64,000 bases of DNA, from assembly GCA_002067705.1 (NCBI GenBank), contig MVRL01000142.1:1142-65141 (forward strand). The letters run 5' to 3'. The position numbers were made by a program, and so were the translations under genes. The stretch is from Methanosaeta sp. PtaU1.Bin112 (GTDB lineage: Archaea; Halobacteriota; Methanosarcinia; Methanotrichales; Methanotrichaceae). Below are positions 25,444 through 39,847 of this stretch, piece after piece; positions within the stretch are counted from its first letter, which is position 1, and each line of letters begins with the position of its first letter. The notes under the pieces were generated by a model. It did not search any database. It had not been told where the DNA came from and saw only the letters and a list, made by a program, of their open reading frames with translations.

Positions 25444-26460
25444 ATGAGATCAATTATTATAGCCCTTTTGCTGGTCCTGGCCCTTGCAACGGCCCAGGCC
25501 GTGCCGCTTCAGGGAAGCGACGGCAACTCGACTGTAGTGCTATTTGGAGCCAGCAGGACGCCTCTGGACGATGAGAACGCCACCCATGAGATTCTGAAGG
25601 TTGATGTCGGACTCATGGGCGCAGAAAATGCCACATATCAATTAATCGATGCGGATAATATAATCCACCCGGTTGGCTTATACAAGCCGCTCTCTTCCGG
25701 AAGACAGACGATATGGTTCCTCTGCAGCAACGATCGCCTCATGAAACTCATCAATGTGACGCCAAATGGGGGAGCGCCCATTTATATCAACTGGTGGGCA
25801 ACACCCAAGGCAAGCAATGAAAACCTGATCATAAGGTATTACGGAATCACCGACTGGCTGGTTAACTCCGATGAACAGGCAATCGTCGTTCAGGTCCGTG
25901 TGCAGAATAACGGCACAAAAGACCTCCTGGTCAGCCCGGAGAACTTCACACTCCTGGATCAGTGGGGATGGCCCTATCAACCTACCCTTGGTTTTGATAC
26001 CGAGGTCGTCGCCCCGCAAAATGCCACCGCGGAACGGGTTAAACTCGGGTTTACCGGGGTCTCGCTGAATAGCCGCCCTGCTGCCCTGGCTTATGACTAT
26101 ATGACGGCCAATCAAATCCTCATAAATTTTGACAGAGATTACGTGCCGCTCTCAGATGAGCTTGTCTATGGCAGCAACGCCACGAAGAGCCAGGCTCCCG
26201 CCCAGCCTCTGCCCGCAGTTGCCGCGCCTGCCTCTGATCAAACTGCAGCGGCTCAGACTGCACCAAGCGAAGCCGCACAGGATTCAGCCAAGGAGAATGC
26301 AACGACAAAGATAGGCACCTCTATCAAGGATAAGATAGCAGCCAGCAAGGCGCGGCTTGCGGCCACCAAAGAGAGCCTGGATCAGAAGACGCCGGACACA
26401 GGTGAAAACGCCAGCGTATCAAGCGACTTCACGAATAGCACATCCAGCATCTCCGCCTGA
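25444..26460 (+). CDS. Secreted hypothetical protein, paralogue of 26588-27532
   Basis: Signal peptide; NNGTKDLLVSPENFTLLDQWGWPY; Ala/Pro/Gln linker; tail IAASKARLAATK. Confidence 0.85.
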   Translation: MRSIIIALLLVLALATAQAVPLQGSDGNSTVVLFGASRTPLDDENATHEILKVDVGLMGAENATYQLIDADNIIHPVGLYKPLSSGRQTIWFLCSNDRLMKLINVTPNGGAPIYINWWATPKASNENLIIRYYGITDWLVNSDEQAIVVQVRVQNNGTKDLLVSPENFTLLDQWGWPYQPTLGFDTEVVAPQNATAERVKLGFTGVSLNSRPAALAYDYMTANQILINFDRDYVPLSDELVYGSNATKSQAPAQPLPAVAAPASDQTAAAQTAPSEAAQDSAKENATTKIGTSIKDKIAASKARLAATKESLDQKTPDTGENASVSSDFTNSTSSISA

Positions 26461-26587
26461 GCCAGAAAGGAAGCTCGAATGGATGGCGATCGCCTGCTGT
26501 CCCGAGAGCTTCATGTATTTCTTTTAATGATATATGCAAAGGGAAGCACCCAAAAGAATATATCATAACATCGGAGGTATGTTATAG

Positions 26588-27532
26588 ATGAAATGGATGG
26601 CTCTGGCAGTGTTCATGCTCCTATTGCTCGGAATCGCCCAATCGGGGATCGCCCAGGATTACCCTCTGCAAATGAGCAACGGCGTGGTCAACTGCACCAT
26701 CTTCGGCTCTTTCAAGGATCCAGGATTTACAGGAACCGCTTATTCCGACTCATATTCCGTCCTGGTGGTAGATTCGCGCCTGAGCAGATTAAACGAGAGC
26801 GATAAAGAGGCAATTCGTGCCGTCTACAGCCTTACCGATGGAAACGACCGGGTCTTTCAAGCCAGCCCTCAAAATATAAAGGAGCTGCAGCCAGGCAGAA
26901 GGCTTATCGGCTTTGTCGTCCCCAAGGAGACCATAGCCAAGAGCCTGACAATAGATTTGTCTTCGGACAGGAATGGCGGCGAGCAGTTTTCCCTCCGTTT
27001 TCCCGAGCTGGTCAACATCAGCAATGAGAATGTGACATTGCTCTACTATGGAGTGCTCCGCTCCAGCGTAACCTCCTATAAGAAGACGATCGAACTTGAT
27101 GTGGCCATATCCAATAACGGCACAAAGAAGCTGGTAATCGAGGCCAATAACTTCACTCTGAAGGACCAGTGGGGCTGGGAGTATATGAGCAGGGAATATG
27201 ATAACTACATCAAGAAAGGCATGTCTGAAACGGTGCTGGTGCAAAATGAGACCATCAGATCCAATTTGATATTCAATTCAGTTTCGCCGCTGAGCAGGCC
27301 GGTTGAGCTGATCTACAGGTATTCCAATAGCAGCTATCTGACGATGAATATCGATTTCGAGGGCGGACTTCTATCAGCCGAGCCAGAGAATGTCTGCACC
27401 GATTGCGAGAGCCCTGAGGACTCGGCATCAAGCCTGGCCGGTTCCATCAAGGCAACCAAAGCTCGCCTGGCAAAGGTCAAAAAGCTGAACAGCACATCCG
27501 AGAGCGCCCCAAAGGGCAGGGATGAGCTCTAA
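26588..27532 (+). CDS. Secreted hypothetical protein, paralogue of 25444-26460
   Basis: Signal peptide; NNGTKKLVIEANNFTLKDQWGWEY; tail IKATKARLAKVK. Confidence 0.85.
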   Translation: MKWMALAVFMLLLLGIAQSGIAQDYPLQMSNGVVNCTIFGSFKDPGFTGTAYSDSYSVLVVDSRLSRLNESDKEAIRAVYSLTDGNDRVFQASPQNIKELQPGRRLIGFVVPKETIAKSLTIDLSSDRNGGEQFSLRFPELVNISNENVTLLYYGVLRSSVTSYKKTIELDVAISNNGTKKLVIEANNFTLKDQWGWEYMSREYDNYIKKGMSETVLVQNETIRSNLIFNSVSPLSRPVELIYRYSNSSYLTMNIDFEGGLLSAEPENVCTDCESPEDSASSLAGSIKATKARLAKVKKLNSTSESAPKGRDEL

Positions 27533-27545
27533 AGTCCATTGCTGT

Positions 27546-27748
27546 ACACTCCCACGACAATGTGCTCTTGCCTGAGGGCACTTTGCCGCCCACGGTAGCC
27601 AGGAGCGCATCGAGCGACTGCCGGGTGTACATTGGTCCGGATGCGCTCCATGCGGCCATCAAGAACTACTGGGTGAAGATCGGCAAGATCAAGCCCTAAG
27701 AGGCCGGACCAGAGGAAGGCGAAGAGGGGGGAGAGCTGCGGTATATGA
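27546..27748. pseudogene. Chimeric remnant: diverged internal secD fragment joined to diverged iscU 3' end
   Basis: 27576-27642 matches secD 29322-29387 (59/67 nt by hand count). 27640-27696 matches iscU 39581-39637 (49/57 nt), and similarity continues to the iscU stop. Confidence 0.9.
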
Positions 27749-27785
27749 AACCGACTACAAAAATCCAATTGATATCCATCATCAG

Positions 27786-28074
27786 TCAAAGGGCATTATT
27801 GCTGTTTCCCATCAATTCGAAACCCATCGCCTTCAGAAATCTCAAGGGTTAATGACCATCAATTGCAGGAGTCTTTTGCATCGGCAGCAACTTCCATCTC
27901 TAAAACCGACGAAAGTATTGAGGCTCTCCATCTTGGTCTCTTCCATGCATATAAGAATGACCTCCCTAATATTCCTCATGGCATCGTCTATGCTCTCACC
28001 CCAGGAGTGACAGCCCTTGAAAAGAGGGCAACTCACTATGTAATGCAAAGGCCATCTTCATCGATTAAATGCAT
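27786..28074 (-). pseudogene. Decayed hicB-hicA type II toxin-antitoxin pair
   Basis: IDEDG then a frameshift to YIVSCPLFKGCHSWGESIDDAMRNIREVI...FVGFR (HicB-like), overlapping MQKTPAIDGH*PLRFLKAMGFEL (HicA-like N-terminus, broken). Confidence 0.7.
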
Positions 28075-28139
28075 TTGGATTATAAAATAGAATATGTCCT
28101 GCAGGTTTTCTCACCCTGCAGGCACCCTCTTTTAAAGTT

Positions 28140-29822
28140 CTAGCTCGTGGACAGTATATGGCCGATGATCCTTCCGTAGGCAGGTCTCGCTATGAATGTG
28201 CCCAGGATCACACCCAGGATGATGATGAGTGCAAATCCGGTGAGCGAGCCAAAGCCCATGACCAGCAATGGCAGCATGGCCACAGTCGTTGTCGCCGCCG
28301 CTCCCATGATGATGAGAAACGCCCTTGACAGCCTGGTCAGATAGACCTTGCTGCTGGTAGCGGCAATCTTGCCCACGCCCGCTTTCTCAGCCGCATCCGC
28401 AGCCCTCTCCTTGATGCTGCGATCAGCAGCGGAAGCCGCAGCCTCTCCGCCTCGCATGAGCTCATCGGTGATGATGACCAGCTGATCCACGCCCGTGCCT
28501 ATCACCATGATGATACCGGCCAGGCTTGCCAGATCAAGCTGCCAGCCAGCCAATGCCCAGACGCCCAGCATCATCACAACCTCGGAGAGGGAGGTGGTGA
28601 CCATTGGCAGGACAATTCTCCTCTCCCGGTAGCGGTAGAAGATCATGCCAGCAACAGCCAGAAGAGCAATCAGCCCGGCGATAACCATCTGCAGCTTGAA
28701 CTGCTTGCCCAGGGCAGCGGAGACCTGGCCGGAGCCCACAACCTCGACATTGACTGGCAGAGCGCCTTCTCGCAGGTGGATGTAAAGCTCTTTAGCCTTT
28801 GCAGAACCTGCATCTCCTCCACCAACGGTAGCCTGCATACTTCGAGAGGGAGCCTTCTGCAGACTGCTGGCCAGTTCTGGGGCAAGCGGCGCTGAGAAGA
28901 TCTCATCCTTATCGAGATACATGGATATGTAGTGATCTTCAGGCCTCTTGGTGGCCCCGGCATCTATGGCCGCCTTCTGGAAGGTCAATGCTCCTTCTTC
29001 AGAGAGGACAAAGGGAACTCCCCATCCGCCGTTGCGTTCTCCCTGGGGGATGTCCACCGACTCCACGGCATCTCCATAGAGCACATGCATGCTATCATTG
29101 TTCTCGGTCTGAATTCTTATCTCGAACTTGCCTGGCTTGCCCACTACCTCCTGAGCAGTGGCCACGTCCATTCCGGCCAGATCGATGAGGATGTATTTAT
29201 TGTCGACTACTCTTACTTTTATATCCTGAAGTCCGAGCCGATTGAGCTTGGAGTCCAGGACTTTTTTGGTCTCATCCACGGTCTCCTTGGACACACCCGC
29301 TACAAACGAGTCTTCGCCCGCGGGCACCTTTCCGCCCACCGGGGCGAGGAGCGCATCAAGCGACTGCCGGGTGACATTGGTCCGGATCTCATATCGAACG
29401 GGCACGACAGCCACATTGAGCTGAACATCTGCGTCCAGGTTCTTCTTCAGGTAATTGATGACGATCGTCTCGGGAGCTGCTACTATTGTGATCTTGGTGC
29501 TGTTGCCACCCTTTGCGATCTTCGATCCAATGTAGCCGAGGTCATCGGCGAATGCTGAATCTACCGAGCCCGGCACGGTCACCACATAGCTCTGTCCATG
29601 CTTCTCTACAGAGGAGGCATTGAACTGATATTCCAGAATTTTCTCGGGAGATACATCGATCTGTGCTTCTGCTCCCTGCAGCTGCAATTGCAGATATGAT
29701 CCTCCCTCCAGATCCAGCCCAAACTTCAAGCCGAAAAAGCCGATGCAGATGATGGCAACAGCTACGACCACCGCATAGAGGACGACCCTTCGGTCCTTTG
29801 ACAGTTCCTCGATCAGGCTCAT
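28140..29822 (-). CDS. secD: Protein translocase subunit SecD
   Basis: LKFGLDLEGGS, KLNRLGL, LREGALP, GTGVDQLVIITDE; six TM segments. Confidence 0.96.
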   Translation of the reverse strand: MSLIEELSKDRRVVLYAVVVAVAIICIGFFGLKFGLDLEGGSYLQLQLQGAEAQIDVSPEKILEYQFNASSVEKHGQSYVVTVPGSVDSAFADDLGYIGSKIAKGGNSTKITIVAAPETIVINYLKKNLDADVQLNVAVVPVRYEIRTNVTRQSLDALLAPVGGKVPAGEDSFVAGVSKETVDETKKVLDSKLNRLGLQDIKVRVVDNKYILIDLAGMDVATAQEVVGKPGKFEIRIQTENNDSMHVLYGDAVESVDIPQGERNGGWGVPFVLSEEGALTFQKAAIDAGATKRPEDHYISMYLDKDEIFSAPLAPELASSLQKAPSRSMQATVGGGDAGSAKAKELYIHLREGALPVNVEVVGSGQVSAALGKQFKLQMVIAGLIALLAVAGMIFYRYRERRIVLPMVTTSLSEVVMMLGVWALAGWQLDLASLAGIIMVIGTGVDQLVIITDELMRGGEAAASAADRSIKERAADAAEKAGVGKIAATSSKVYLTRLSRAFLIIMGAAATTTVAMLPLLVMGFGSLTGFALIIILGVILGTFIARPAYGRIIGHILSTS

Positions 29823-30709
29823 CTCTTCTGCCCCCGAGCTGCCTTCTTTGGCTTATTCAGGTACCATCGCAATCCCTGAGCATTGGTTACCCAGGTGTTG
29901 AATACATCCGCCGCCAGTCCGAATATCAGGACTGCAGACATATCGGCAATGATGTCCATCCTGGTAAATGAGGGCACTATGAAGTAAAGGAAGTTGGAGA
30001 CAATAATCAGGGCGATTACCGCACAGATTGTGGTTCCGGCCATTGTGAGGCCCGTTCCCATTGCCCCTATGATCTTCTCTTCCACGAGGCCCTTGCGCTT
30101 CAATACTCTCATGGATAGCAGGATATCGGTATCTACGGAATAACCGATGAGCATGAGAAGGGCGGCAACTGTTCCCAGTGAGAGCTGCACGCCTGTCAGG
30201 TTCATGGAGGCTGCTGCCGTTAAGATGTCAGCCAGCGCGCTGACCACAACCAGCAGAGAAACGATTGGTTCCCTGAAGACCAGGAATACCACTATGGCCA
30301 TCAAAAGGAACGAAAGTGGAAGGTACCTGACGACCTGCTCCTGAAGCTCCTTGCTGTAAATCGGTCCTATATGCCTGATCTCCGGGCCATCGAAATTGCT
30401 GTTGGCCAGTTTTACAAGATCTGCATATTGAGAGTCGCTCATCGGGCCGAACTGGAGCATGTATCTTCCGCCGATGTTTCTTATGTCCACCAGTGGATAA
30501 GCATCAAACTGCCCGGCTACTTGTTCTTCCGATTCCGTTGATGGCACTGTGACAAGAGTGCCTCCTGTAAACTCTATCCCCAGCTTCACAGGCGAGCCTG
30601 TGGCAAGATAGGTCGCGCCCAAGCTGATAAGTGCTAATATTATGATAGCGATAGGAATCAGCATTATCTGCTTGGGTGGGTACTTAGAAACGATGTCCTC
30701 CAATTCCAT
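29819..30709 (-). CDS. secF: Protein translocase subunit SecF
   Basis: LGIEFTGGT, LMLIGYSVDTDILL; overlaps the secD start by 4 nt. Confidence 0.95.
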   Translation of the reverse strand: MELEDIVSKYPPKQIMLIPIAIIILALISLGATYLATGSPVKLGIEFTGGTLVTVPSTESEEQVAGQFDAYPLVDIRNIGGRYMLQFGPMSDSQYADLVKLANSNFDGPEIRHIGPIYSKELQEQVVRYLPLSFLLMAIVVFLVFREPIVSLLVVVSALADILTAAASMNLTGVQLSLGTVAALLMLIGYSVDTDILLSMRVLKRKGLVEEKIIGAMGTGLTMAGTTICAVIALIIVSNFLYFIVPSFTRMDIIADMSAVLIFGLAADVFNTWVTNAQGLRWYLNKPKKAARGQKR

Positions 30710-30887
30710 GTTATTTCTCCTCAAACTCACTCTCTTTTTAAACCCACCACGCGAATATTACTCTGCTAATCTGCTTTCATTGCGAATGTGTTACTTGATG
30801 CTATTGCGCCTTCATAAGAATATTTCAATCTATTTACGGCTTGTCATCAATGGTTCTCCTTAAAGGCAGCATCAAGCGCTAACTCTG

Positions 30888-32168
30888 TCAAACCTTTTCC
30901 CACTTCTTGAGGTTTGCCACCGTGGAGAGCGTCCCACCGCGCCGAATCTCCTCATAGAGCCGGCTTTCCATCTTCTGGACCTCTTTGGCTCTTCTGGCGA
31001 TCTCGTAGGCTCTCTCTTTGGGAATGACCACCACTCCGCTCTCGTCTCCTACAATGTAATCCCCTGGTCGAACCGTCTGGCCGCCGCAGGTAATCTCGCT
31101 ATTGATCTCGCCCATACCCTTGGGATCGCCAGCATTCGGAGTGATGCCTGAAGCGAATAGGGGGTATTTTAGCTCTCTGATCTCATCTACATCTCGAACG
31201 GCTCCGTCAATGACCACGCCTTCAATTCCCCGGTTCTTGCTGCTCAGGGTGGCAAGGCCCCCCCAGGGCGCAATATAGTTGCTTCCGTTGTAGATGACCA
31301 GCACATCCCCGGGTCCGCACAGGTCTATGGCTTCCACTGGCTTGGCCCAGTCTCCGGCAAAGGTCTGCACCGTCACCGCCCTGCCAACGATCTTGGTCCC
31401 AAGATTGATGGGAAGGATGCCGCGCATGGCTCCTTTGCGGTGCATGCCGTCTGAGATGTTGGGCGTTGATACCTCACGGAAGATGGCGATCATCTCCTCG
31501 TCCCGGCTCATCTTTGCGCCCACGCTGGTTTCTGCATGGTCTATTGCATCGCGAAGCTTTTGGGCGGATGCAGTCACATCAGCGCTTCTTACAATGCTTC
31601 CCCCCACAATGACGATATCAGCGCCGCTGGCGATAGCCTGCGCACCGGTGATCGGATCTATGCCTCCTGCTGCTGCCAGGGGAGTGCTGACCACCTTTGC
31701 GATCTCTTTGAGGAAATCGACCGTATCGCGACCGGTCATCTGCTGGTCGATGCCCACGTGAACGCAGATGTAATCCACGCCGAGGGCCTCCAGCTCGCGG
31801 GAACGCGCTATCGGGTCCGGAACGCTGATAAGGTCCATCATGATCTGTACGCCGTATTTTCGCGCCGCCCGCAGGGCATCCTCGATAGTGGAGTTATCGG
31901 ATACGGCCAGCAGGGCCACAATATCGGCTCCCGCTTTGGCCGCCATCTCCACCTCCATTGCTCCCGTGTCCACTGTCTTCATATCGGCAACTATTCGAGT
32001 CCCCGGCAGGGCCTTCTTTATCTCGCGCACAGCGTCCATGCCCTCGCTCTTGATAAGGGGTGTTCCTGCTTCAATCCAGTCTGCGCCGCCCAAGACTGCC
32101 TCTTTGGCTATCTGAATTGATCTGTCCAGCTCAAGAAGATCCAGTGCCACCTGTAGAATGGGTTTAAT
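30888..32168 (-). CDS. 3-hexulose-6-phosphate synthase fused to RraA/HMG-aldolase-like domain
   Basis: (I)[38 protein letters not shown]; C-terminal [32 protein letters not shown]. No in-frame ATG; ATT 32168 or GTG 32150. Confidence 0.9.
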
Positions 32169-32229
32169 ATGACATCACCACACTATCAGCCGATTAGCAT
32201 ACATCAGCACACGCTAAGTAAAAAGGTGC

Positions 32230-33141
32230 ATGGTATATAAAATGAAGCTGGCAGATATTTCTGAGATAGAGCTTGATGACGATCCCTTTCGGCCTCGCGG
32301 CCTGAGTTTCACCAAGCTGCATGGAAACGGCAACGACTTCATCCTGATAGATGAGACCAGTCGCGAGCAGGTAGCAGAGAACGAGAAGAAGAGGTTTGCC
32401 ATTGCCGTCTGCCATCGTCATTTTGGCATAGGTGCGGATGGGGTCTTGTTCCTGATAAACAGTTCGCGAGCCGATCTCGGCATGAGGCTAATTCAGCCGG
32501 ATGGCTCAGAGGCTGAGATGTGCGGCAACGGCATACGCTGCCTGGCAAAATACGCCTGGGACACCGGGTATGTTGGCGAGGCTTTCGATATAGAAACCCT
32601 GGCCGGCATCATCCCTGTGCAGGTTCGAGAAAGAGACGGCTTCTTCTGGACCAAGGTGGACATGGGGACGCCCAAGTTCGACCGGCCTTCCATTCCGGCC
32701 TGCGGCCAGGGAGAGCTGATTTCTGAAGAGATCGAAGGCAGCAGGGTATCGGCGGTCAATACCGGTGTCCCCCATGCGGTCCTCTTCGTTGAGGATATGA
32801 ATTTCGATATTCTCAGAGCTGCTCCGTCTATAAGACATAACAGCCTCTTTCCAGAAGGAGCCAATGTGAATTTTGTCAAGGTTGGCCAGCATCTGGAGAT
32901 CAGGACCTTTGAGAGGGGCGTGGAAGGAGAGACACTCTCCTGCGGGACGGGATCTGTGGCCGCTGCCAGCGTGGCCCACCGCATGGGACTGGTGGATGAT
33001 GAGGTCCTGGTCCAGACCAAAGGCGGGCCTCTGCTGATAAGCTTTGAAGATGGAAAAGCCTTCATGGAGGGACCGGCAGTAACGGTCTGCTCTGGGGAGC
33101 TATCTGAAGAGTACCTGTGGAACTTATCCATGGAGCCTTGA
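32230..33141 (+). CDS. dapF: Diaminopimelate epimerase
   Basis: FTKLHGNGNDF, EMCGNGIRC, NTGVPHAV, ERGVEGETLSCGTG. Confidence 0.96.
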   Translation: MVYKMKLADISEIELDDDPFRPRGLSFTKLHGNGNDFILIDETSREQVAENEKKRFAIAVCHRHFGIGADGVLFLINSSRADLGMRLIQPDGSEAEMCGNGIRCLAKYAWDTGYVGEAFDIETLAGIIPVQVRERDGFFWTKVDMGTPKFDRPSIPACGQGELISEEIEGSRVSAVNTGVPHAVLFVEDMNFDILRAAPSIRHNSLFPEGANVNFVKVGQHLEIRTFERGVEGETLSCGTGSVAAASVAHRMGLVDDEVLVQTKGGPLLISFEDGKAFMEGPAVTVCSGELSEEYLWNLSMEP

Positions 33142-33172
33142 TAAAAGCATTGAAGGCAAAATTGAGGCAAAA

Positions 33173-33655
33173 ATGAAGATAAAAGCGGCACTATCGGGAC
33201 TGATGATTCTCACAATCACTTTCATTTTTGTCCAATGGATTCTCGCGAGCACAGCATTTGCAGATCATTATGTGATGGAGATAGGAAGCAAGAGCAATCC
33301 CAATGCTCATCTCTTCGCTTATGACCAGAAGTTTCGGGAGAGCACCAATTTGCGCAACTATCCCATGAGGACGAGCGCATCCAAGGAGTTTACCGATGCT
33401 ACTCGTCTTTCCACCAAGATGGGGCTGAAGGCGCTGCCCAACCTCACCGAGATGACCATAGACGCTGATTTCATCGGCATAGGGCGCATTGGCTACCTGG
33501 TGCTGGATCCGGATAGGGCGAATCCGGAGATGTGGGGCCCGAAGCATGAGGTGACGCGCATCAATCACATGTTCGTGGGCAACTTTACCATCAATGAGCA
33601 GATAATAGTAGCAAAGAATCATATGTGCGAGGACGGATACTTGCCGTGCGCTTGA
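33173..33655 (+). CDS. Secreted hypothetical protein
   Basis: Signal-peptide-like N-terminus and coherent 160-aa frame. Confidence 0.75.
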   Translation: MKIKAALSGLMILTITFIFVQWILASTAFADHYVMEIGSKSNPNAHLFAYDQKFRESTNLRNYPMRTSASKEFTDATRLSTKMGLKALPNLTEMTIDADFIGIGRIGYLVLDPDRANPEMWGPKHEVTRINHMFVGNFTINEQIIVAKNHMCEDGYLPCA

Positions 33656-33723
33656 TGTTCTCTTTATGGGTCACCGAATCATGAGGGTTTTAAAATGAGA
33701 GGACAGGAACATGTGATTGAATT

Positions 33724-33759
33724 GGGCAGACTCTCCTGCCCCAGCTTTCCGTTTTTTTT
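33724..33759 (+). terminator. Hairpin GGGCAG-N6-CTGCCC followed by a T8 tract between convergent genes
   Basis: Read directly. T-tracts are the usual archaeal termination signal. Confidence 0.5.
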
Positions 33760-33808
33760 CCTCACTTTCCTCTAGATTTCTCTTGTCGACTTTCTTGACT
33801 CTTGCCTG

Positions 33809-34876
33809 CTAAACTAACCTTCTTTCATGGGCCAGCCAGTCCTGCCAGAGGTAAATCCTGGCATCAAAGCCCATGAGCTCTAGAGCAAACCAGACAATTG
33901 ATGCCCCATAAATTTCATCCGAGTAGACCACAGTCGTCCGGCTGGAATTCAATCGGGCAAATACATCCTGCAGATTCGTTCCATTCTTCAGCCTTCCGCC
34001 GTCCAGCACGTTCTTTGGACTGATGAAGGTGGCATTGAGAATTCTGGATCTGCCGAACTCTTCAAATGTCCTGGCATCCACCATCTGAGCCTCGCCTGAT
34101 CTCACATAATCATAGTCCGCTAAAAGCTCGTCTTTAGGGCGGGCGGCGACATAGCTTGCCGGAGGACGGACGTTCTCCGCGGTCTCCAGGGGCAGACTGG
34201 CTGCAATCCAGTTTTCCAGTCCCCCATCCAGAGCCCTGACTTTGTCGTGCCCCAGGTAGCGCAGCGAGAAGAGGACGGATGTTGCTTCTCCCGAGGCAAA
34301 TGAGTCAGAATAGATCATCAATGGATCATTCTGGGATATGCCGGCCCTGCTCAGAATTTCCGCCAGGTCAGCGGCATTGCGCAGCGATCCATTCTCAAAA
34401 AAAAAGCCCTTAGCGGGGATATTTATGCTGCCTCGGATATGAGCCTGGCCTGGGGTGCGGCTGGCGGATACATCGAGCACCACATCTCCCTCAGCTATGG
34501 CATCCAGAGATTTCAGCATCTCTGGTTCCGGAAAAGAATCCGCCCTGCTGCCGGGGGCAACATACGCTCCGCTGGTGCTTGAGGCCGCGATGTTTGGCGT
34601 GCTGCCCACGGTTTTGGTCGCTGTAGCGCCAGAGGCCTGGCCGGCCCGAAAGCTGCTGCTCGAGCTGATGCTGTTTGAGCTGGAGGCTCCAGTCAAGCCC
34701 ATCAGCGGGACATCGGAGCTCATAAATGCCTGAGCCGATTCCAGCCAGGAGTCGCTGCCTGATCCGCATCCTCCCACTGAGCAGCTGGCCTGCGCAGGAG
34801 GAGCAGATGCAGAGACTACGATGAGAATTGATAAGAGGAATGGCAAACATAGCCAAGATGGCAAATAAGTCTTCAT
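33809..34876 (-). CDS. Secreted tandem rhodanese-domain protein lacking active-site cysteines
   Basis: HIRGSINIP, VRALDGGLENW, MVDARTFEEF. Active-site loops read IYSDSF and VYSDEI. Confidence 0.8.
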   Translation of the reverse strand: MKTYLPSWLCLPFLLSILIVVSASAPPAQASCSVGGCGSGSDSWLESAQAFMSSDVPLMGLTGASSSNSISSSSSFRAGQASGATATKTVGSTPNIAASSTSGAYVAPGSRADSFPEPEMLKSLDAIAEGDVVLDVSASRTPGQAHIRGSINIPAKGFFFENGSLRNAADLAEILSRAGISQNDPLMIYSDSFASGEATSVLFSLRYLGHDKVRALDGGLENWIAASLPLETAENVRPPASYVAARPKDELLADYDYVRSGEAQMVDARTFEEFGRSRILNATFISPKNVLDGGRLKNGTNLQDVFARLNSSRTTVVYSDEIYGASIVWFALELMGFDARIYLWQDWLAHERRLV

Positions 34877-34947
34877 CTAAAATGATCTCCTGAGGCCCTC
34901 TTAATTTATTCTCAATTGGTATTTAGCCAGATATTGCTCCGCCGCCC

Positions 34948-35781
34948 CTACCTTGGTTTTACCGCGCTGACCTTTATGCTCAAAACCGAATCGGCAACTT
35001 CCTTCTGCTGCTCGGGGGAAATGCTCGGCATCTCAATCACCGACGAGCCCGCGGTCCCGCACAGGAGCGATTCTACAGGAAAGCTCGATTCGGCTGCAAC
35101 AGTCACTTCTGAAAAACCAACATCTTTTATGATCTTCAGGTATTCGTCCTTCATGATGGCTCCGGCCAGACAGCCGATGTAGGCTTTGCTTGAGCTCTTC
35201 ACGAACTCCGGCAACTCTCTGGTCAGCACCACATCAGAAACCGCCAGCCTTCCGCCGGGCTTGAGAACCCGGAAGGCTTCTCTGAAGGCCATGGTCTTGT
35301 TGGGAATGAGATTAATGGCGCAGTTGGAGATGACCACATCCACGTACCTGTCAGCCACAGGCATGTTCTCGAGGTCTCCCTGCCGAAAATCGATATTCGT
35401 GTATCCCCCTTTGCGGGCATTGGACCTGGCGCGATCGACCATCTCCGAGGTGATATCAACGCCTATTACCTTTCCGGACAGACCCACCCGAAAGGAGGCT
35501 AAAAAGCAATCAAATCCACCTCCTGCGCCCATGTCCAGGACGATCTCCCCCTCTTTCAGGGAAGCCAGGGCCACTGGATTGCCGCATCCCAGTCCCATAT
35601 TCGATTCCGGGGGAGCGGCAGAGATCTCCTCATCGGAATAACCCATCCTCTTGCTTATAGATTCAGGAATATCGCCACAGCCGCAGCAGCTCCGTGACGA
35701 ATAATAGGATGTTGCCTGTTTTGCAATTCGAGCATAGCCTTCCTTTACCGCTCTCTTGATCTCCTTTTCCTTAATCGCCAT
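34948..35781 (-). CDS. arsM: Arsenite S-adenosylmethionine methyltransferase
   Basis: MGLGCGNP, LDMGAGGGFDCF, VVISNCAINL, YIGCLAGA. Start set at ATG 35781. Confidence 0.9.
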   Translation of the reverse strand: MAIKEKEIKRAVKEGYARIAKQATSYYSSRSCCGCGDIPESISKRMGYSDEEISAAPPESNMGLGCGNPVALASLKEGEIVLDMGAGGGFDCFLASFRVGLSGKVIGVDITSEMVDRARSNARKGGYTNIDFRQGDLENMPVADRYVDVVISNCAINLIPNKTMAFREAFRVLKPGGRLAVSDVVLTRELPEFVKSSSKAYIGCLAGAIMKDEYLKIIKDVGFSEVTVAAESSFPVESLLCGTAGSSVIEMPSISPEQQKEVADSVLSIKVSAVKPR

Positions 35782-35929
35782 TAGAAACTCCACCGATCCT
35801 GAATATTGGTTTATTCGCATCTGTAGTTCAACTGGGAAATTGTATCTCATCATCTTGGTCTTAGGCTATTATTAAGGTTTGCTCAAAACGCAAGGAGAAA
35901 ATAAGATGAAGCCCATCAGCATGAGCGCA

Positions 35930-36502
35930 TCATCTAGTCGGACCGATCCGTCTATCCTTCTTTGCCGGCTCGTAGTCGCTAATGGTCTTGATCAGCATCT
36001 GGTGCCTCGCCCACAGGATAGCGATAGCCATCAGGGATACAACCAGCCAGGCGGCAAACCACAGCTTCATCAATCTATCTGTGCAGCCACCTGGAATGAG
36101 CCCCTGAGATAGGATAAAAGCGGCGGCTGCAAGTGTTACAATAATTGAGAAGAACAGATTGGCAGAAGGGGCCATGCCGTCCCGATAGGAGGCACAGAAG
36201 CGCTCCCATTCCCTCTCCGCCCTGCCGGTCAATGACGCTGGGTTTCTGCCCAGAAAGATGCCCACGCGCTTGATCCGAGAGTCGGCGGACATAATATAGA
36301 GATCGTAGCTTATGGCCACCAGAGGGACAAAGTAAAGCAGCCAGAAAATGTCAGAGATATCGATGCCCATATTCACGGAGCTGAGGCCGAATAGAACGGT
36401 GATAAAGGCCAGCTTCATTGTGACGAGCTGGGTGCGTTCATTTTGAGTTCGTATCTTCTCTTCATGAAGCGCGCGCAGGAACTCCTGATCGTTTTCCTCC
36501 AT
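35930..36502 (-). CDS. Hypothetical membrane protein (about 4 TM)
   Basis: SD-preceded ATG and several hydrophobic helices. Confidence 0.8.
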   Translation of the reverse strand: MEENDQEFLRALHEEKIRTQNERTQLVTMKLAFITVLFGLSSVNMGIDISDIFWLLYFVPLVAISYDLYIMSADSRIKRVGIFLGRNPASLTGRAEREWERFCASYRDGMAPSANLFFSIIVTLAAAAFILSQGLIPGGCTDRLMKLWFAAWLVVSLMAIAILWARHQMLIKTISDYEPAKKDRRIGPTR

Positions 36503-36625
36503 TAGTACCCTACTCCCTACTATAGGATGTATCGATAATATTAATAATTTTTGTATGTAATGGTCAAGAAGCAGGTAAAAGATATGGGAAATGAATTTAT
36601 CCTAAATGCGCTCAATTTAAGTGGA

Positions 36626-37564
36626 ATGAAACCGATGGACCAGGTACTGGATACCTGCACAAAGATTCGCAGCATGCAGATCAGAGGCGCAGGCAGAATT
36701 GCGACGGCAGCGGCAGCATCTCTGCGAGATTTCTCTCAGGACATGCAGGCGCAAAGCCTTGATGAGTTCAATGGTCAGATGAAGAAGGCCGCCGACATTC
36801 TTCTAAATACCAGGCCCACCGCGGTCTCCCTCTCCAATGCCATACGGATGGTGATGAAATATGATGCACAAGACCTGGATACGGCTCGCCAGGCTATTGC
36901 TCTGAATGCCAACCGCTTCATCGAGATCTCAGAAAAGGCTCTGGAGAGAATCGGGCAGATCGGCAGCCGCAGGATAAAGGATGATTCTGTCGTGCTCACC
37001 CACTGCAACTCTCTGGCTGCGCTATCCGTTATCAGTACCGCTCACAATTCCGGAAAGAGGATCAAGGTGATCGCTACCGAATCGCGACCCAGGTATCAGG
37101 GCATCACCACTATCGGAATGCTGGACAGGATGGGCATCGAGACGGAATTGATTGTCGATTCCGCGGCCAGGAGCATCATGAATGAGGTTGATCTGGTGGT
37201 GGTGGGAGCTGATGTGATAACCGCCAACGGCAATCTGGTAAATAAGATCGGCACCGCTCAGATAGCTCTCTCAGCCCATGAGGCCAGAACCAGTTTTATC
37301 GTAGCCGCAGAGACATACAAGTTCAGCCCTCAGACAATCCTGGGCGAATTGGTTACCATCGAGGAACGCGAAGCCAGCGAGGTACTGGCAGACCTCTCCA
37401 GGTACAGCCATGTGCGGGTAAGAAATCCGGCCTTTGATGTGACTCCTCACCAGTACATCGATCTGATTTGCACCGAGGTTGGAGCCATACCTCCGGAGAT
37501 GAGCTATCAGATCATCAGGGAGCGGCTGGGCTGGGAGATGGAAGAGGAGTGCCTGCGAAAATAA
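36626..37564 (+). CDS. Ribose-1,5-bisphosphate isomerase (eIF2B-like)
   Basis: IRSMQIRGAGRIA, TRPTAVSL, LTHCNS, TESRP, VGADVITANG, NPAFDVTP. Confidence 0.9.
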   Translation: MKPMDQVLDTCTKIRSMQIRGAGRIATAAAASLRDFSQDMQAQSLDEFNGQMKKAADILLNTRPTAVSLSNAIRMVMKYDAQDLDTARQAIALNANRFIEISEKALERIGQIGSRRIKDDSVVLTHCNSLAALSVISTAHNSGKRIKVIATESRPRYQGITTIGMLDRMGIETELIVDSAARSIMNEVDLVVVGADVITANGNLVNKIGTAQIALSAHEARTSFIVAAETYKFSPQTILGELVTIEEREASEVLADLSRYSHVRVRNPAFDVTPHQYIDLICTEVGAIPPEMSYQIIRERLGWEMEEECLRK

Positions 37565-37921
37565 GAATGCCTGCGAAGAAAATGGCTCTGAGGAAATGAT
37601 TAACGGAGCTGAAAAAAGCTGAGGCGAGGTGGCCCGAATTAAGGCCAGCAGATAGATGGTCTGTTGAAGACGTTGTTGATCTCCTTTGATCCCGGCAATG
37701 ATGTCGTGCTTTCATTTTCCGTTTTTTTTGATGACTTGAAGCTCTGCCGAAAAACCGAGAATTTCTGCCGTAATGGCATTGATTCTCCTGCAATCTCCTC
37801 CACTATTGCAGACAATCAGATGCTTGAGTGTCCAAATACCCGCCTGGCTGAATGGAGGAAATGTCAGAATTGTGGAATTATCAACAGTTTGCTTGATCGC
37901 AGAACCTAATCACAAGGCCTA

Positions 37922-38491
37922 TCAGGCCATCTTGCGAAAGACGAGCATCATGGCAAGAATTGCCGCTACTGTCCCTGATGCCGGTGTATTCCGGGATTGA
38001 GCCGGGGGCTCCTCTGAGGATCTTCTCTCATCCTGCGATGCATTATCTCCTTGCAGCGTCGTATCTGTTGCCATCGACCTGTCCTGCGCCTGAATTTCCT
38101 GGCCGCCATCTTTTTCCAGCACATTAATAAAGCCCGTCTTCTTGCCGGAGGGCGCTCCTTTAGCAGCGACGTCTGCTACGAAAGAGTAGTTGCCAGGCGG
38201 TACGTCTGCTGCTTTGACGCTGCAGTTGAACTGGGTCACGCCTGCCGGAAAGACGTTTTTGATCATCTTTGGGCATGAGATATGGAAGCCATCGCTTATG
38301 TTCTTGAAGACCAGTTCGACATAGGCTCTCTCACTGCCCAGCCCCTTAACCGAGACTGAAAAGTTTGCTTCGCTATTGGCTGTCATCTCAATGGGAGTGA
38401 TCTCTTTGACCTGGAACCAGAAGGATGCACCCGCTTGGCCGGCCAGGATCAAGAGAAGAGCGATGAGAAGAACATAAAATTGTTTTTTCAT
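37922..38491 (-). CDS. Secreted Ig-like hypothetical protein with C-terminal anchor-like tail
   Basis: Signal peptide; tail TPASGTVAAILAMMLVFRKMA (short TM plus basic residues). Confidence 0.8.
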   Translation of the reverse strand: MKKQFYVLLIALLLILAGQAGASFWFQVKEITPIEMTANSEANFSVSVKGLGSERAYVELVFKNISDGFHISCPKMIKNVFPAGVTQFNCSVKAADVPPGNYSFVADVAAKGAPSGKKTGFINVLEKDGGQEIQAQDRSMATDTTLQGDNASQDERRSSEEPPAQSRNTPASGTVAAILAMMLVFRKMA

Positions 38492-38835
38492 GAGGATTGA
38501 GTGTCTTGAAGAATATAAAGAGATTTCGGAATATATTCAGAATACCTATCCCATTTCCGCCAATCTCTGGGATGTATATCTTTAAAATTGTTGATATACA
38601 AATATCTTGGCGGCGTATAGCGCCACAGGTCAAATATGCGATATTCAGAGCTCCAGTAGTTGTTATATGTTCCTCTATCCGGATCAAAATAGGACCCCAA
38701 AACAACAGCGCCGGTTTCGTGAGGATTCAGGTTGCCGATAAGGCCGTGGCCGATATGAACCGACGCAGGAGTTGCCAGGCCCTGCCCGATCATCATAACA
38801 AGACAAAAGAATATTGCTGCAATATATCTCTTCAT
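38488..38835 (-). CDS. Secreted hypothetical protein
   Basis: SD-preceded MKRYIAAIFFCLV signal peptide; overlaps the next gene by 4 nt. Confidence 0.7.
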   Translation of the reverse strand: MKRYIAAIFFCLVMMIGQGLATPASVHIGHGLIGNLNPHETGAVVLGSYFDPDRGTYNNYWSSEYRIFDLWRYTPPRYLYINNFKDIHPRDWRKWDRYSEYIPKSLYILQDTQSS

Positions 38836-39247
38836 TGCTATCCTCTTGATTGTCAGGCATTTGATCTTGCAGGAATAAATAATTTGGTCTAAACTTGCTC
38901 TGTGCCTCATGGCCCTCACAGATCCCACCAGGCAGGAAGTCGCTCAACGCTATCGATTGAAGCTATCGATTGGCCGGCGGGGCCATACAAGCTCAGACAG
39001 CGTTTTCGAGAGATAGAGATGCTGCTCTTGGATAGAGACAAAAGATGGCAAGCCAAATGCAATCACATCACCAACCATCCCATCTTTCCCCCCAGCCATA
39101 GGCTTAAGACATGAGCAAGCACATGGATGCATGATCGTTGCACCGGGCAGGAGCGACAACCCGGATCGGGCACAGGCGATTTCCAATGAAACAAATATCA
39201 AATTACAAAGGTAGAAAGACCTCACTCCTCTAAAGGTGATTGACTAA

Positions 39248-39703
39248 ATGGCACAGATAGGCTACTCCAAGGAAGTAATGGACCACTTCATGAATCCCAG
39301 GAATGTGGGGGTGATTGAAAATCCGGATGGATACGGAAAGGTGGGCAACCCCGTATGCGGCGATCTTATGGAAATATTTATCAACGTTAAAGATGACAGA
39401 ATCGATGAGATAAAATTCAGAACCTTTGGCTGCGGAGCGGCCATAGCCGTCTCCAGTATGGTAACTGAGATGGCCAAGGGCAAGACCCTGGATGAGGCCA
39501 TGAAGATCACCCGCAAGGATGTGGCTGATCAGCTTGGAGGCCTGCCGCCCCAGAAGATGCACTGCTCCAACCTCGGTGCCGATGCGCTGCATGCAGCAAT
39601 CGAGGATTACTGGGCCAAGATCGGCAAGATCAAGCCCGAGCAGGCCAAGTCAAAGCTAGCTGAGTCTGAGGAAAGCGAAGAGGGGAAAAGCTGCGGGACG
39701 TGA
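39248..39703 (+). CDS. iscU: Fe-S cluster scaffold protein IscU/NifU
   Basis: YSKEVMDHFMNPRNVG, GNPVCGDLM, FGCGAAIA, KMHCSNL. Confidence 0.96.
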   Translation: MAQIGYSKEVMDHFMNPRNVGVIENPDGYGKVGNPVCGDLMEIFINVKDDRIDEIKFRTFGCGAAIAVSSMVTEMAKGKTLDEAMKITRKDVADQLGGLPPQKMHCSNLGADALHAAIEDYWAKIGKIKPEQAKSKLAESEESEEGKSCGT

Positions 39704-39847
39704 TGGTGGGAAGGCACCTTTTTTCTGGAGATGCTATCCATGATGCTACTCATTTCAGTGCATTTCATAACGAAGATGCACGTTGCCGAAAGACTGCCAA
39801 AGAAACACCCGAAAAGTCAAAAATAGAATAAGATCTCAAGATGCGGC

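Follow-up and report, generated by a model that had tools for sequence, protein, structure and literature searches.

How did about 200 bp that read as a piece of secD followed by a piece of iscU come to lie beside the intact secD of Methanosaeta sp. PtaU1.Bin112? The original prediction saw in this sequence, here called the ghost (27543 to 27748 of the window, the 64,000-nt stretch of DNA that was analysed), a second copy of the neighbouring secD-to-iscU block that had collapsed by deletion. The reading that we favour, and to which we give about an even chance, is a different one: the ghost would be a non-functional scar at the ancestral iscS-iscU/secD junction, produced by a local head-to-tail duplication and later trimmed.

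BLASTN of window positions 27500 to 27800 against the remainder of the window returned three collinear matches on the same strand. Positions 27543 to 27642 matched secD at 29288 to 29387 (81/101, 80%, 2 gaps, E 2e-19), inside a 560-aa SecD ORF on the minus strand (28140 to 29822) that carries the Pfam domains SecD_SecF_C and Sec_GG; the plus strand is here antisense to secD. Positions 27634 to 27705 matched iscU at 39575 to 39646 (59/72, 82%, E 5e-15) and positions 27712 to 27741 matched 39668 to 39696 (26/30, E 1e-3), both targets forming the 3' end of a 151-aa ORF assigned by Pfam to NifU_N/IscU (39248 to 39703). The secD and iscU matches overlap by 9 nt (GGTCCGGAT, 27634 to 27642). The predicted composite of decayed fragments of two genes, secD then iscU with a short-homology joint, is thus real, and the similarity did not vanish in formal alignment. 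No further copy of the ghost was found in the whole 3.44-Mb assembly. The features discussed below are as follows.

26588 to 27532, plus strand: DUFb, 314 aa, weakly DUF4352-like (Pfam), the left flank of the scar.
27543 to 27642, minus strand: Dmid', decayed secD fragment of 100 nt, codons about 146 to 179 (BLASTN).
27629 to 27642, no strand: the joint, a 14-nt homeologous patch (secD and iscU alignments).
27643 to 27748, plus strand: U3', C-terminal ~35 codons of an X-type iscU ('alpha'), ending at the former stop codon (BLASTN, translation, maximum likelihood).
27749 to 27817, no strand: decayed spacer 3' of the former iscU (alignment to L058).
27818 to 28066, minus strand: x', a hicB-like antitoxin remnant with an ORF at 27842 to 28048 (Pfam HicB_lk_antitox, E 1.6e-6).
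28067 to 29822, minus strand: secD downstream terminator region and intact resident secD (Pfam; collinear with L058 and G004:C46).
39095 to 39247, plus strand: remnant of iscS, last ~50 codons (homology start in relatives; tblastn).
39248 to 39815, plus strand: resident iscU ('beta') with ~110 nt downstream (Pfam NifU_N).

The order of genes in the window is metG (minus strand), DUFa, DUFb, whose stop codon lies ~10 nt ahead of the secD fragment, the ghost, the HicB-like ORF of 68 aa (minus strand) and secD. After secD come secF, an Hps-RraA fusion, dapF, h160, rhodanese, a methyltransferase, h190, an IF-2B family gene, h189 and h146, followed by the iscS 3' remnant (~150 nt), the resident iscU, h145, h403 and purP.

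The genome that carries the window (G000) is a draft of 200 contigs with an estimated contamination of 3.7%, and small contigs of the assembly hold 75 to 76% copies of nearby genes, which would favour an assembly chimera as the source of the ghost. We find this explanation hardly credible. Indeed, Logan contig L054 (run ERR14964769, 3665 nt), which was assembled independently, equals window 26009 to 29673 apart from SNPs at 28767 and 29163, which both lie within secD and outside the ghost. It spans the scar with both flanks, and DUFb, the ghost, hicB' and secD are all intact in it; because the joint is reproduced there, we do not take the ghost for a chimera. Furthermore, the two halves are 80 to 82% copies rather than exact pieces from another strain, and an overlap of 9 nt is not long enough to lead an assembler astray. 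The same joint, which the original prediction had proposed to look for in relatives, was absent from the 58 other species of the genus (59 species searched, 24 in a first round) and from the JGI metagenome contigs, and exact-protein look-ups with the resident SecD and IscU returned no other contigs.

In the nearest clade, DUF998-TusA-DsrE-iscS-iscU is followed by a variable toxin-antitoxin cassette and then by the 3' end of secD, with secD-secF-hps on the opposite strand. Between iscU and secD, the cassette consists of y, HicA and HicB, of HicB alone or of a PIN gene, or there is none. The JGI contigs L058 and L059 carry DUF998-TusA-DsrE-iscS-iscU and, on the opposite strand, y, HicA, HicB, secD, secF and hps, then dapF, h160 and rhodanese. 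In L057, the secD 3' end lies about 190 nt after iscU; NCBI GCA_041305465.1 (L080) has iscS-iscU, a PIN-domain gene and secD; and G004:C8 has iscS-iscU, HicB and a 137-nt secD 3' fragment. The block from secD to h160 was syntenic in every relative examined.

The right-hand part of the ghost fits into this arrangement. Window segments 27640 to 27790, 27818 to 28066 and 28076 to 34850 are collinear with L058 7967 to 8114, 9028 to 9273 and 9402 to 16056 at 83 to 88% identity (83% for the first of them). L058 8115 to 9027 is without counterpart in the window, the spacer lacking y and hicA relative to L058. The hicB remnant is 88% identical to L058 9028 to 9273, whose full 84-aa gene also matches HicB. 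As a side observation, this remnant is an orphan: its first ~11 codons, its upstream region and its HicA partner are missing. Since iscU tail, spacer, hicB' and secD keep the ancestral order, the iscU half is what remains, in its original place beside secD, of an iscS-iscU copy ('alpha') that has been lost.

Read in the iscU frame, the ghost gives DALHAAIKNYWVKIGKIKP, a stop, and EAGPEEGEEGGELRYMK. It holds a premature TAA at 27697 to 27699 and one additional G in the run 27726 to 27731, this stop and this frameshift being all that separates it from a real IscU C terminus (P0008/L057: ...KIGKIKPEEAGPEEGEEGESCGT). The iscU half is 92% identical to iscU of G004:C8, L057 and G053 versus 82% to the resident iscU, and has the short tail and the diagnostic bases of the G004, L057 and L058 iscU genes. 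In the maximum likelihood tree, it falls inside the X clade, which includes G004:C8, L057 and L058 (UFBoot 97, terminal branch 0.054). A position as sister to the resident iscU was rejected (dlnL 30.6, AU p 0.001); topology tests gave p 0.06 for a position as sister to the entire Y clade (the resident type, see below) and p 0.11 for a position outside the X crown. Its place within X is not robust, a CTC site favouring L057/L058 and GGTA favouring G004:C8. As the resident copy is fast-evolving (branch 0.09), the iscU half could also look X-like through retention of the ancestral state.

The resident iscU ('beta'), 12 kb from the ghost, belongs to a second, separate locus beside h145. Indeed, h145 follows the resident-type iscU in 3/3 contigs carrying this type. 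The IscU of JGI contig L055 is 95% identical in amino acids to the resident one and has a full iscS upstream and h145 downstream. That of NCBI contig L056 (MAG GCA_964621705.1) is 91% identical; this contig has the same iscS truncation, joined to h146, and shares the arrangement h146, iscS remnant, iscU, h145 and h403 at 88 to 94% nucleotide identity. The resident gene, L055 and L056 form the Y clade, with a long, distinct C-terminal tail (EQAKSKLAESEESEEGKSCGT in the resident protein). The homology of relatives to the resident iscU region always starts at 39087 to 39095, in the last ~50 codons of iscS; tblastn with amino acids 345 to 390 of the G004 IscS also supports the iscS remnant. The body of iscS, present in L055, is missing before the resident iscU. 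A further full iscS-iscU operon of the genome lies on contig C181. Separately, an isolated IscS C-terminal fragment was seen at C46:8774-9055 of G000 (48% amino acid identity to residues 296 to 390 of the G004 IscS).

Two other accounts of the resident gene were rejected. A recent foreign import does not fit, since its dS to X-clade iscU (0.68 to 0.83) resembles that of secD (0.59 to 0.66) and the locus is common to L055 and L056. Nor can resident iscU and ghost be the two products, with overlapping ends, of one translocation, the iscU tail being too fresh for neutral evolution since the origin of the resident-type (Y) clade (P 3e-5).

These results bear on the original prediction, according to which a second block from secD to the resident iscU, there through tandem duplication or transfer, had stood at the left and was collapsed by a 10.2-kb deletion from secD 29387 to iscU 39581. 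The two halves are indeed collinear with the present order of secD and resident iscU, the stretch from DUFb to h145 has a terminal redundancy (iscU tail at one end, iscS remnant and iscU at the other) of the kind that a tandem array could leave, and the end product would look alike whether a small tandem duplication or a large one with a subsequent 10-kb deletion had made it. We nevertheless consider this history quite unlikely. As the rejected sister position shows, the iscU half belongs to another type than the resident gene. It lies in the ancestral place, judged from G004:C8, L057, L058, L059 and L080, and is followed by hicB and secD as is the X-type iscU of relatives, whereas the resident type, at its other locus, leads to h145. 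For the secD half, the resident secD is not a closer match than the secD of other species. Furthermore, no second secF, hps or dapF of comparable identity was found in the assembly, and tblastn detected no second secD in the genome. When the G004 block (secD to IF2B) was compared with the genome by BLASTN, only methyltransferase-h190-IF2B had a second match, at 75 to 76% and on small contigs. The 10-kb-deletion route, which needs more steps than a small tandem duplication, is thus not supported.

Contigs C120, C57 and C50 of G000 hold these 75 to 76% copies of the methyltransferase-h190-IF2B part (about 34.9 to 37.5 kb of the window). They may be old paralogues or stem from a second binned Methanothrix population, probably the latter.

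We then considered the joint itself (27629 to 27642). Here secD reads ACATTGGTCCGGAT and the iscU alleles read ACCT(C/T)GG(G/T)GC(C/G)GAT, 10 to 11 of the 14 positions being shared. The final 3 to 6 nt of the patch are exact, depending on the iscU allele, and several iscU alleles align to the ghost from window position 27629 onward. In the ghost, a piece from the middle of secD lies 5' of the iscU tail on the same strand, while in the native order iscU is upstream of secD. Because of this reversed order, a deletion of the native locus cannot make the joint. A natively downstream sequence is joined in direct orientation to a natively upstream one, with short and imperfect homology at the point of exchange, as is typical of a tandem duplication. 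The left copy, which such a duplication should also leave, is represented by 100 nt only (27543 to 27642), with DUFb to the left of 27543, and a later deletion must therefore be assumed.

The secD half gave a different picture from the iscU half. Its translation reads IRTNV, a frameshift, and TRQSLDALLATVGGKVPSG, with one inserted and one deleted base. It is 84.8% identical to secD of L058/L059, 81.8% to that of G004 and 80.8% to the resident gene; its closest known sequences are L058/L059 at 83 to 85%, and L080 stands at 73%. For both halves another species is thus closer than the resident genes (iscU, 92% versus 82%; secD, 84.8% in L058 versus 80.8%), an outcome for which the original prediction had proposed to look.

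The secD half has GCGACTGCC.GGTG in common with the resident, G004 and L058 genes, and retains the ancestral CACTTTGCC and GCCAGG at sites where these three have a derived state in common. In a parsimony comparison with L058, G004 and outgroups, it carries none of the about six changes of the resident secD branch, and it also lacks 7 to 8 changes common to the secD genes of the X clade. In the maximum likelihood tree it branched off at the base of G000+X (UFBoot 75), its terminal branch being 0.157, and AU tests were compatible with other nearby placements. A likelihood profile disfavoured an origin from the resident lineage past one third of its branch (p 0.018 at 0.33, 0.006 at 0.5 and 0.0016 at 0.67), and likelihood ratio tests of a late resident-lineage origin ranged from p 0.018 to 0.0005. 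Either the duplication of secD would be old, or the secD half would have a source other than the resident lineage. We read this half as an older, displaced piece of secD. We also considered an imported tract in the resident secD beside the ghost, and none was seen: in a sliding window, the identity of the resident secD to L058 and G004 was uniform (0.85 to 0.90), without a step at 29288 or 29387.

The difference between the halves extends to their ages. Between G000 and the X clade, dS was 0.59 to 0.66 for secD and 0.68 to 0.83 for iscU, and hence neutral divergence would amount to about 0.3 per lineage. Roughly 5/98 positions have changed in the iscU half and roughly 16/100 in the secD half (Fisher p 0.02). 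The iscU half is too fresh to have evolved neutrally since the G000-X split (P 2.5e-7) or the Y crown (P 3e-5), while the secD half could have arisen at the Y crown or after it (P 0.2 to 0.7) and is marginal for the X-Y split (P 0.024). For the iscU half, the simple reason would be that the alpha iscU remained a working gene in place until fairly recently. This agrees with the original prediction in so far as selection is concerned: the short iscU branch (0.054 versus about 0.3 expected under neutrality) and a reading frame one stop and one frameshift away from a real C terminus support the view that both source genes were functional, and distinct from the resident copies, before they decayed.

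Taken together, the joint and the ancestral place of the iscU half suggest the following course for the tandem duplication that we favour. A head-to-tail duplication of [iscU 3' end ... hicB ... secD middle] would yield the backward joint in one step, the exchange being guided by the 14-nt secD/iscU patch with its 10 to 11 matches. The duplicated interval would measure about 1.75 kb in present coordinates and 2.75 kb in those of L058. The upstream copy would then have held intact iscS-iscU, hicB and a truncated secD, and the downstream copy a truncated iscU, now the ghost, together with the intact secD. With the upstream copy deleted as far as 27543, DUFb would have come to lie beside the last 100 nt of the truncated secD. 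Decay would account for the rest, namely, for the substitutions, for the pair of single-base indels of the secD half and for the stop and frameshift of the iscU half.

Several findings weigh against this proposal. The duplication is deduced from a single joint, and 100 nt of the upstream copy are left. The decay of the halves is unequal (0.157 versus 0.054), while equal decay is predicted if one event killed both; the model would then require that the iscU tail underwent gene conversion by the intact copy. In addition, the adjacency of DUFb and h145 in G004 and L074 implies further large rearrangements that the model leaves unexplained. The main problems, in our view, are how unequally the halves have decayed and how old the secD half is, and they keep alive both a two-step history and a small chance of foreign DNA.

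The two-step history is a minor but real possibility. An old stray secD fragment, the residue of an earlier rearrangement in this unstable region, would have lain upstream of the alpha operon, and a more recent deletion from this fragment into iscU, via the 14-nt patch, would have taken TusA-DsrE-iscS and the 5' part of iscU. This accounts for the unequal decay, and for a secD half as old as the split of the X clade next to an iscU half that is too fresh for neutral evolution over that time. Stray secD fragments near the locus are also known elsewhere, as in G004:C8. The price is an additional, earlier event that has left no observed trace: none of the relatives has a secD fragment upstream of the isc operon, and DUF998-TusA-DsrE occupies that place in G004:C8, L058 and L059. 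Another scheme, a single deletion with a templated secD insert, we disfavour, since the secD half is 80% identical to the resident gene and is the older of the two halves.

Foreign DNA is a doubtful source, for which we see a small chance. A fragment [iscU 3' ... hicB ... secD middle] from another Methanothrix, circularised by end-joining at the CGGAT patch, could have entered through a single crossover within the homologous hicB/secD 3' region, or else via homology-facilitated illegitimate recombination, and have given a tandem duplication with one foreign copy. In line with this, both halves resemble working alleles unlike the resident genes, the X clade includes the iscU half with a UFBoot of 97, and the secD half is without any change of the resident branch. 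The placements of the halves conflict with each other, the iscU half falling in the X crown and the secD half lacking 7 to 8 X changes, so that no single sampled donor fits. No donor above 85% for the secD half or above 92% for the iscU half was found in the 59 species and the metagenome contigs recovered via protein look-ups. Moreover, the uniform identity of the resident secD to X reveals no imported tract beside the ghost, and the X-like iscU half is explicable as a retained ancestral state.

Beyond the ghost, the left edge of the scar coincides with larger differences between species. In G004 (L062) and the Logan contigs L074 and L075, h145 follows directly after DUFb, and in ENA contig L073 it follows after an extra stretch of 1.7 kb. 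Relative to G004 (L062) and L074, window 27533 to 39815 (12.3 kb) is an insert between DUFb and h145. It is circularly permuted and terminally redundant, with the iscU tail at its start and the iscS remnant-iscU plus 110 nt at its end. In L072 (GCA_041305465.1), DUFb is followed by the inverted counterpart of window 53917 to 45328 (L072 10939 to 17277), which indicates a large inversion with one breakpoint just after DUFb, at the ghost's left edge.

Other members of the genus carry their own irregularities at this place. In G004:C8 (L028 10454 to 10597), a stray secD 3' fragment of 137 to 144 nt lies between hicB and y, the full secD being on C46. It carries derived sites of G004's own secD, and is therefore the product of an event separate from the ghost. 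A single duplication in the common ancestor of G000 and G004 for both was rejected, since at least 7 derived sites are shared with the G004 secD; the differing positions of the hicB/secD junctions also rule it out. No genes of the window were found over 26 kb upstream of iscU in G004:C8, and there is thus no large secD...iscU unit in it. In G008 (L047, G008:C147 7189 to 7407), a decayed partial copy of the iscU 3' end, with a stop and indels, lies about 1 kb after the intact iscU. The backward joints and partial duplicates in G004:C8 and G008 make plain that this place is prone to rearrangement, and the iscU/toxin-antitoxin/secD junction is a recurrent breakpoint in Methanothrix.

Could the scar itself be a working element, either a small RNA antisense to the secD mRNA or a small protein? 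A plus-strand transcript of the secD half would indeed be antisense to secD, and ORFs of 60 to 86 aa overlap the scar. We judge such a role very improbable. The complementarity of 80%, with indels, is poor for an antisense RNA; a stop and frameshifts break both source frames; the scar sits between two convergent genes; and the joint occurs in no other species. An Rfam scan of 27300 to 28300 at E<=1 gave a sub-threshold match inside secD only, and Pfam gave no match for the ORFs across the scar. Nothing in the sequence indicates that the scar has a function of its own.

As a product of rearrangement, the scar can be compared with known systems. In the genetics of Salmonella and E. coli, the join points of spontaneous tandem duplications arise via illegitimate recombination at short or imperfect homologies. 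The ghost is similar in that it links the middle of the downstream secD to the 3' end of the upstream iscU, in direct orientation and at imperfect homology; unlike these join points, it keeps only 100 nt of the upstream copy, is old (5 to 16% decay) and is archaeal. It also resembles the gene remnants found at prokaryotic breakpoints, with two truncated, frameshifted housekeeping pieces in an intergenic gap and intact genes elsewhere, but differs from simple remnants in being a composite of two genes in reversed native order.

Templated insertions at breakpoints arise by replication template switching (MMBIR/FoSTeS). The likeness to the ghost lies in a 100-nt piece from a gene 1.7 kb away, set between two breakpoints (DUFb/secD piece/iscU tail) with microhomology. 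However, had the secD piece been copied in the event that killed iscU, some 90% identity or more with the resident secD would be expected; the piece is 80% identical and older than the iscU half. The attachment sites of integrative elements involve a partial duplication of the target gene's 3' end, and two direct iscU 3' ends do flank a 12-kb stretch. In contrast to an integrated element, this stretch consists of housekeeping genes (secDF, hps, dapF) and is without an integrase; its flanking repeats differ in allele type and are 82% identical, and the displaced copy is on the wrong side of the intact gene for an insertion at the 3' end. No integrase, recombinase or mobile content was found among the ORFs from 27.7 to 39.2 kb, which are secD, secF, Hps-RraA, dapF, rhodanese, a methyltransferase, an IF-2B family protein and hypotheticals.

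The scar, an ordinary relic of rearrangement, is of little importance alone and should be annotated as two pseudogene fragments rather than as a gene or an RNA. It is of use as a marker: of a lineage that has recently lost one of three iscS-iscU loci, the ancestral one beside secD; of the 12.3 kb between DUFb and h145 that are reshuffled relative to sister species; and of an iscU/secD junction whose cassette content differs in almost every species. It is also a caution, since a ghost that is collinear with the present gene order can be misread where that order has itself changed. If the import were true, the scar would be direct sequence evidence of chromosomal recombination between species in a methanogen without a known competence system.
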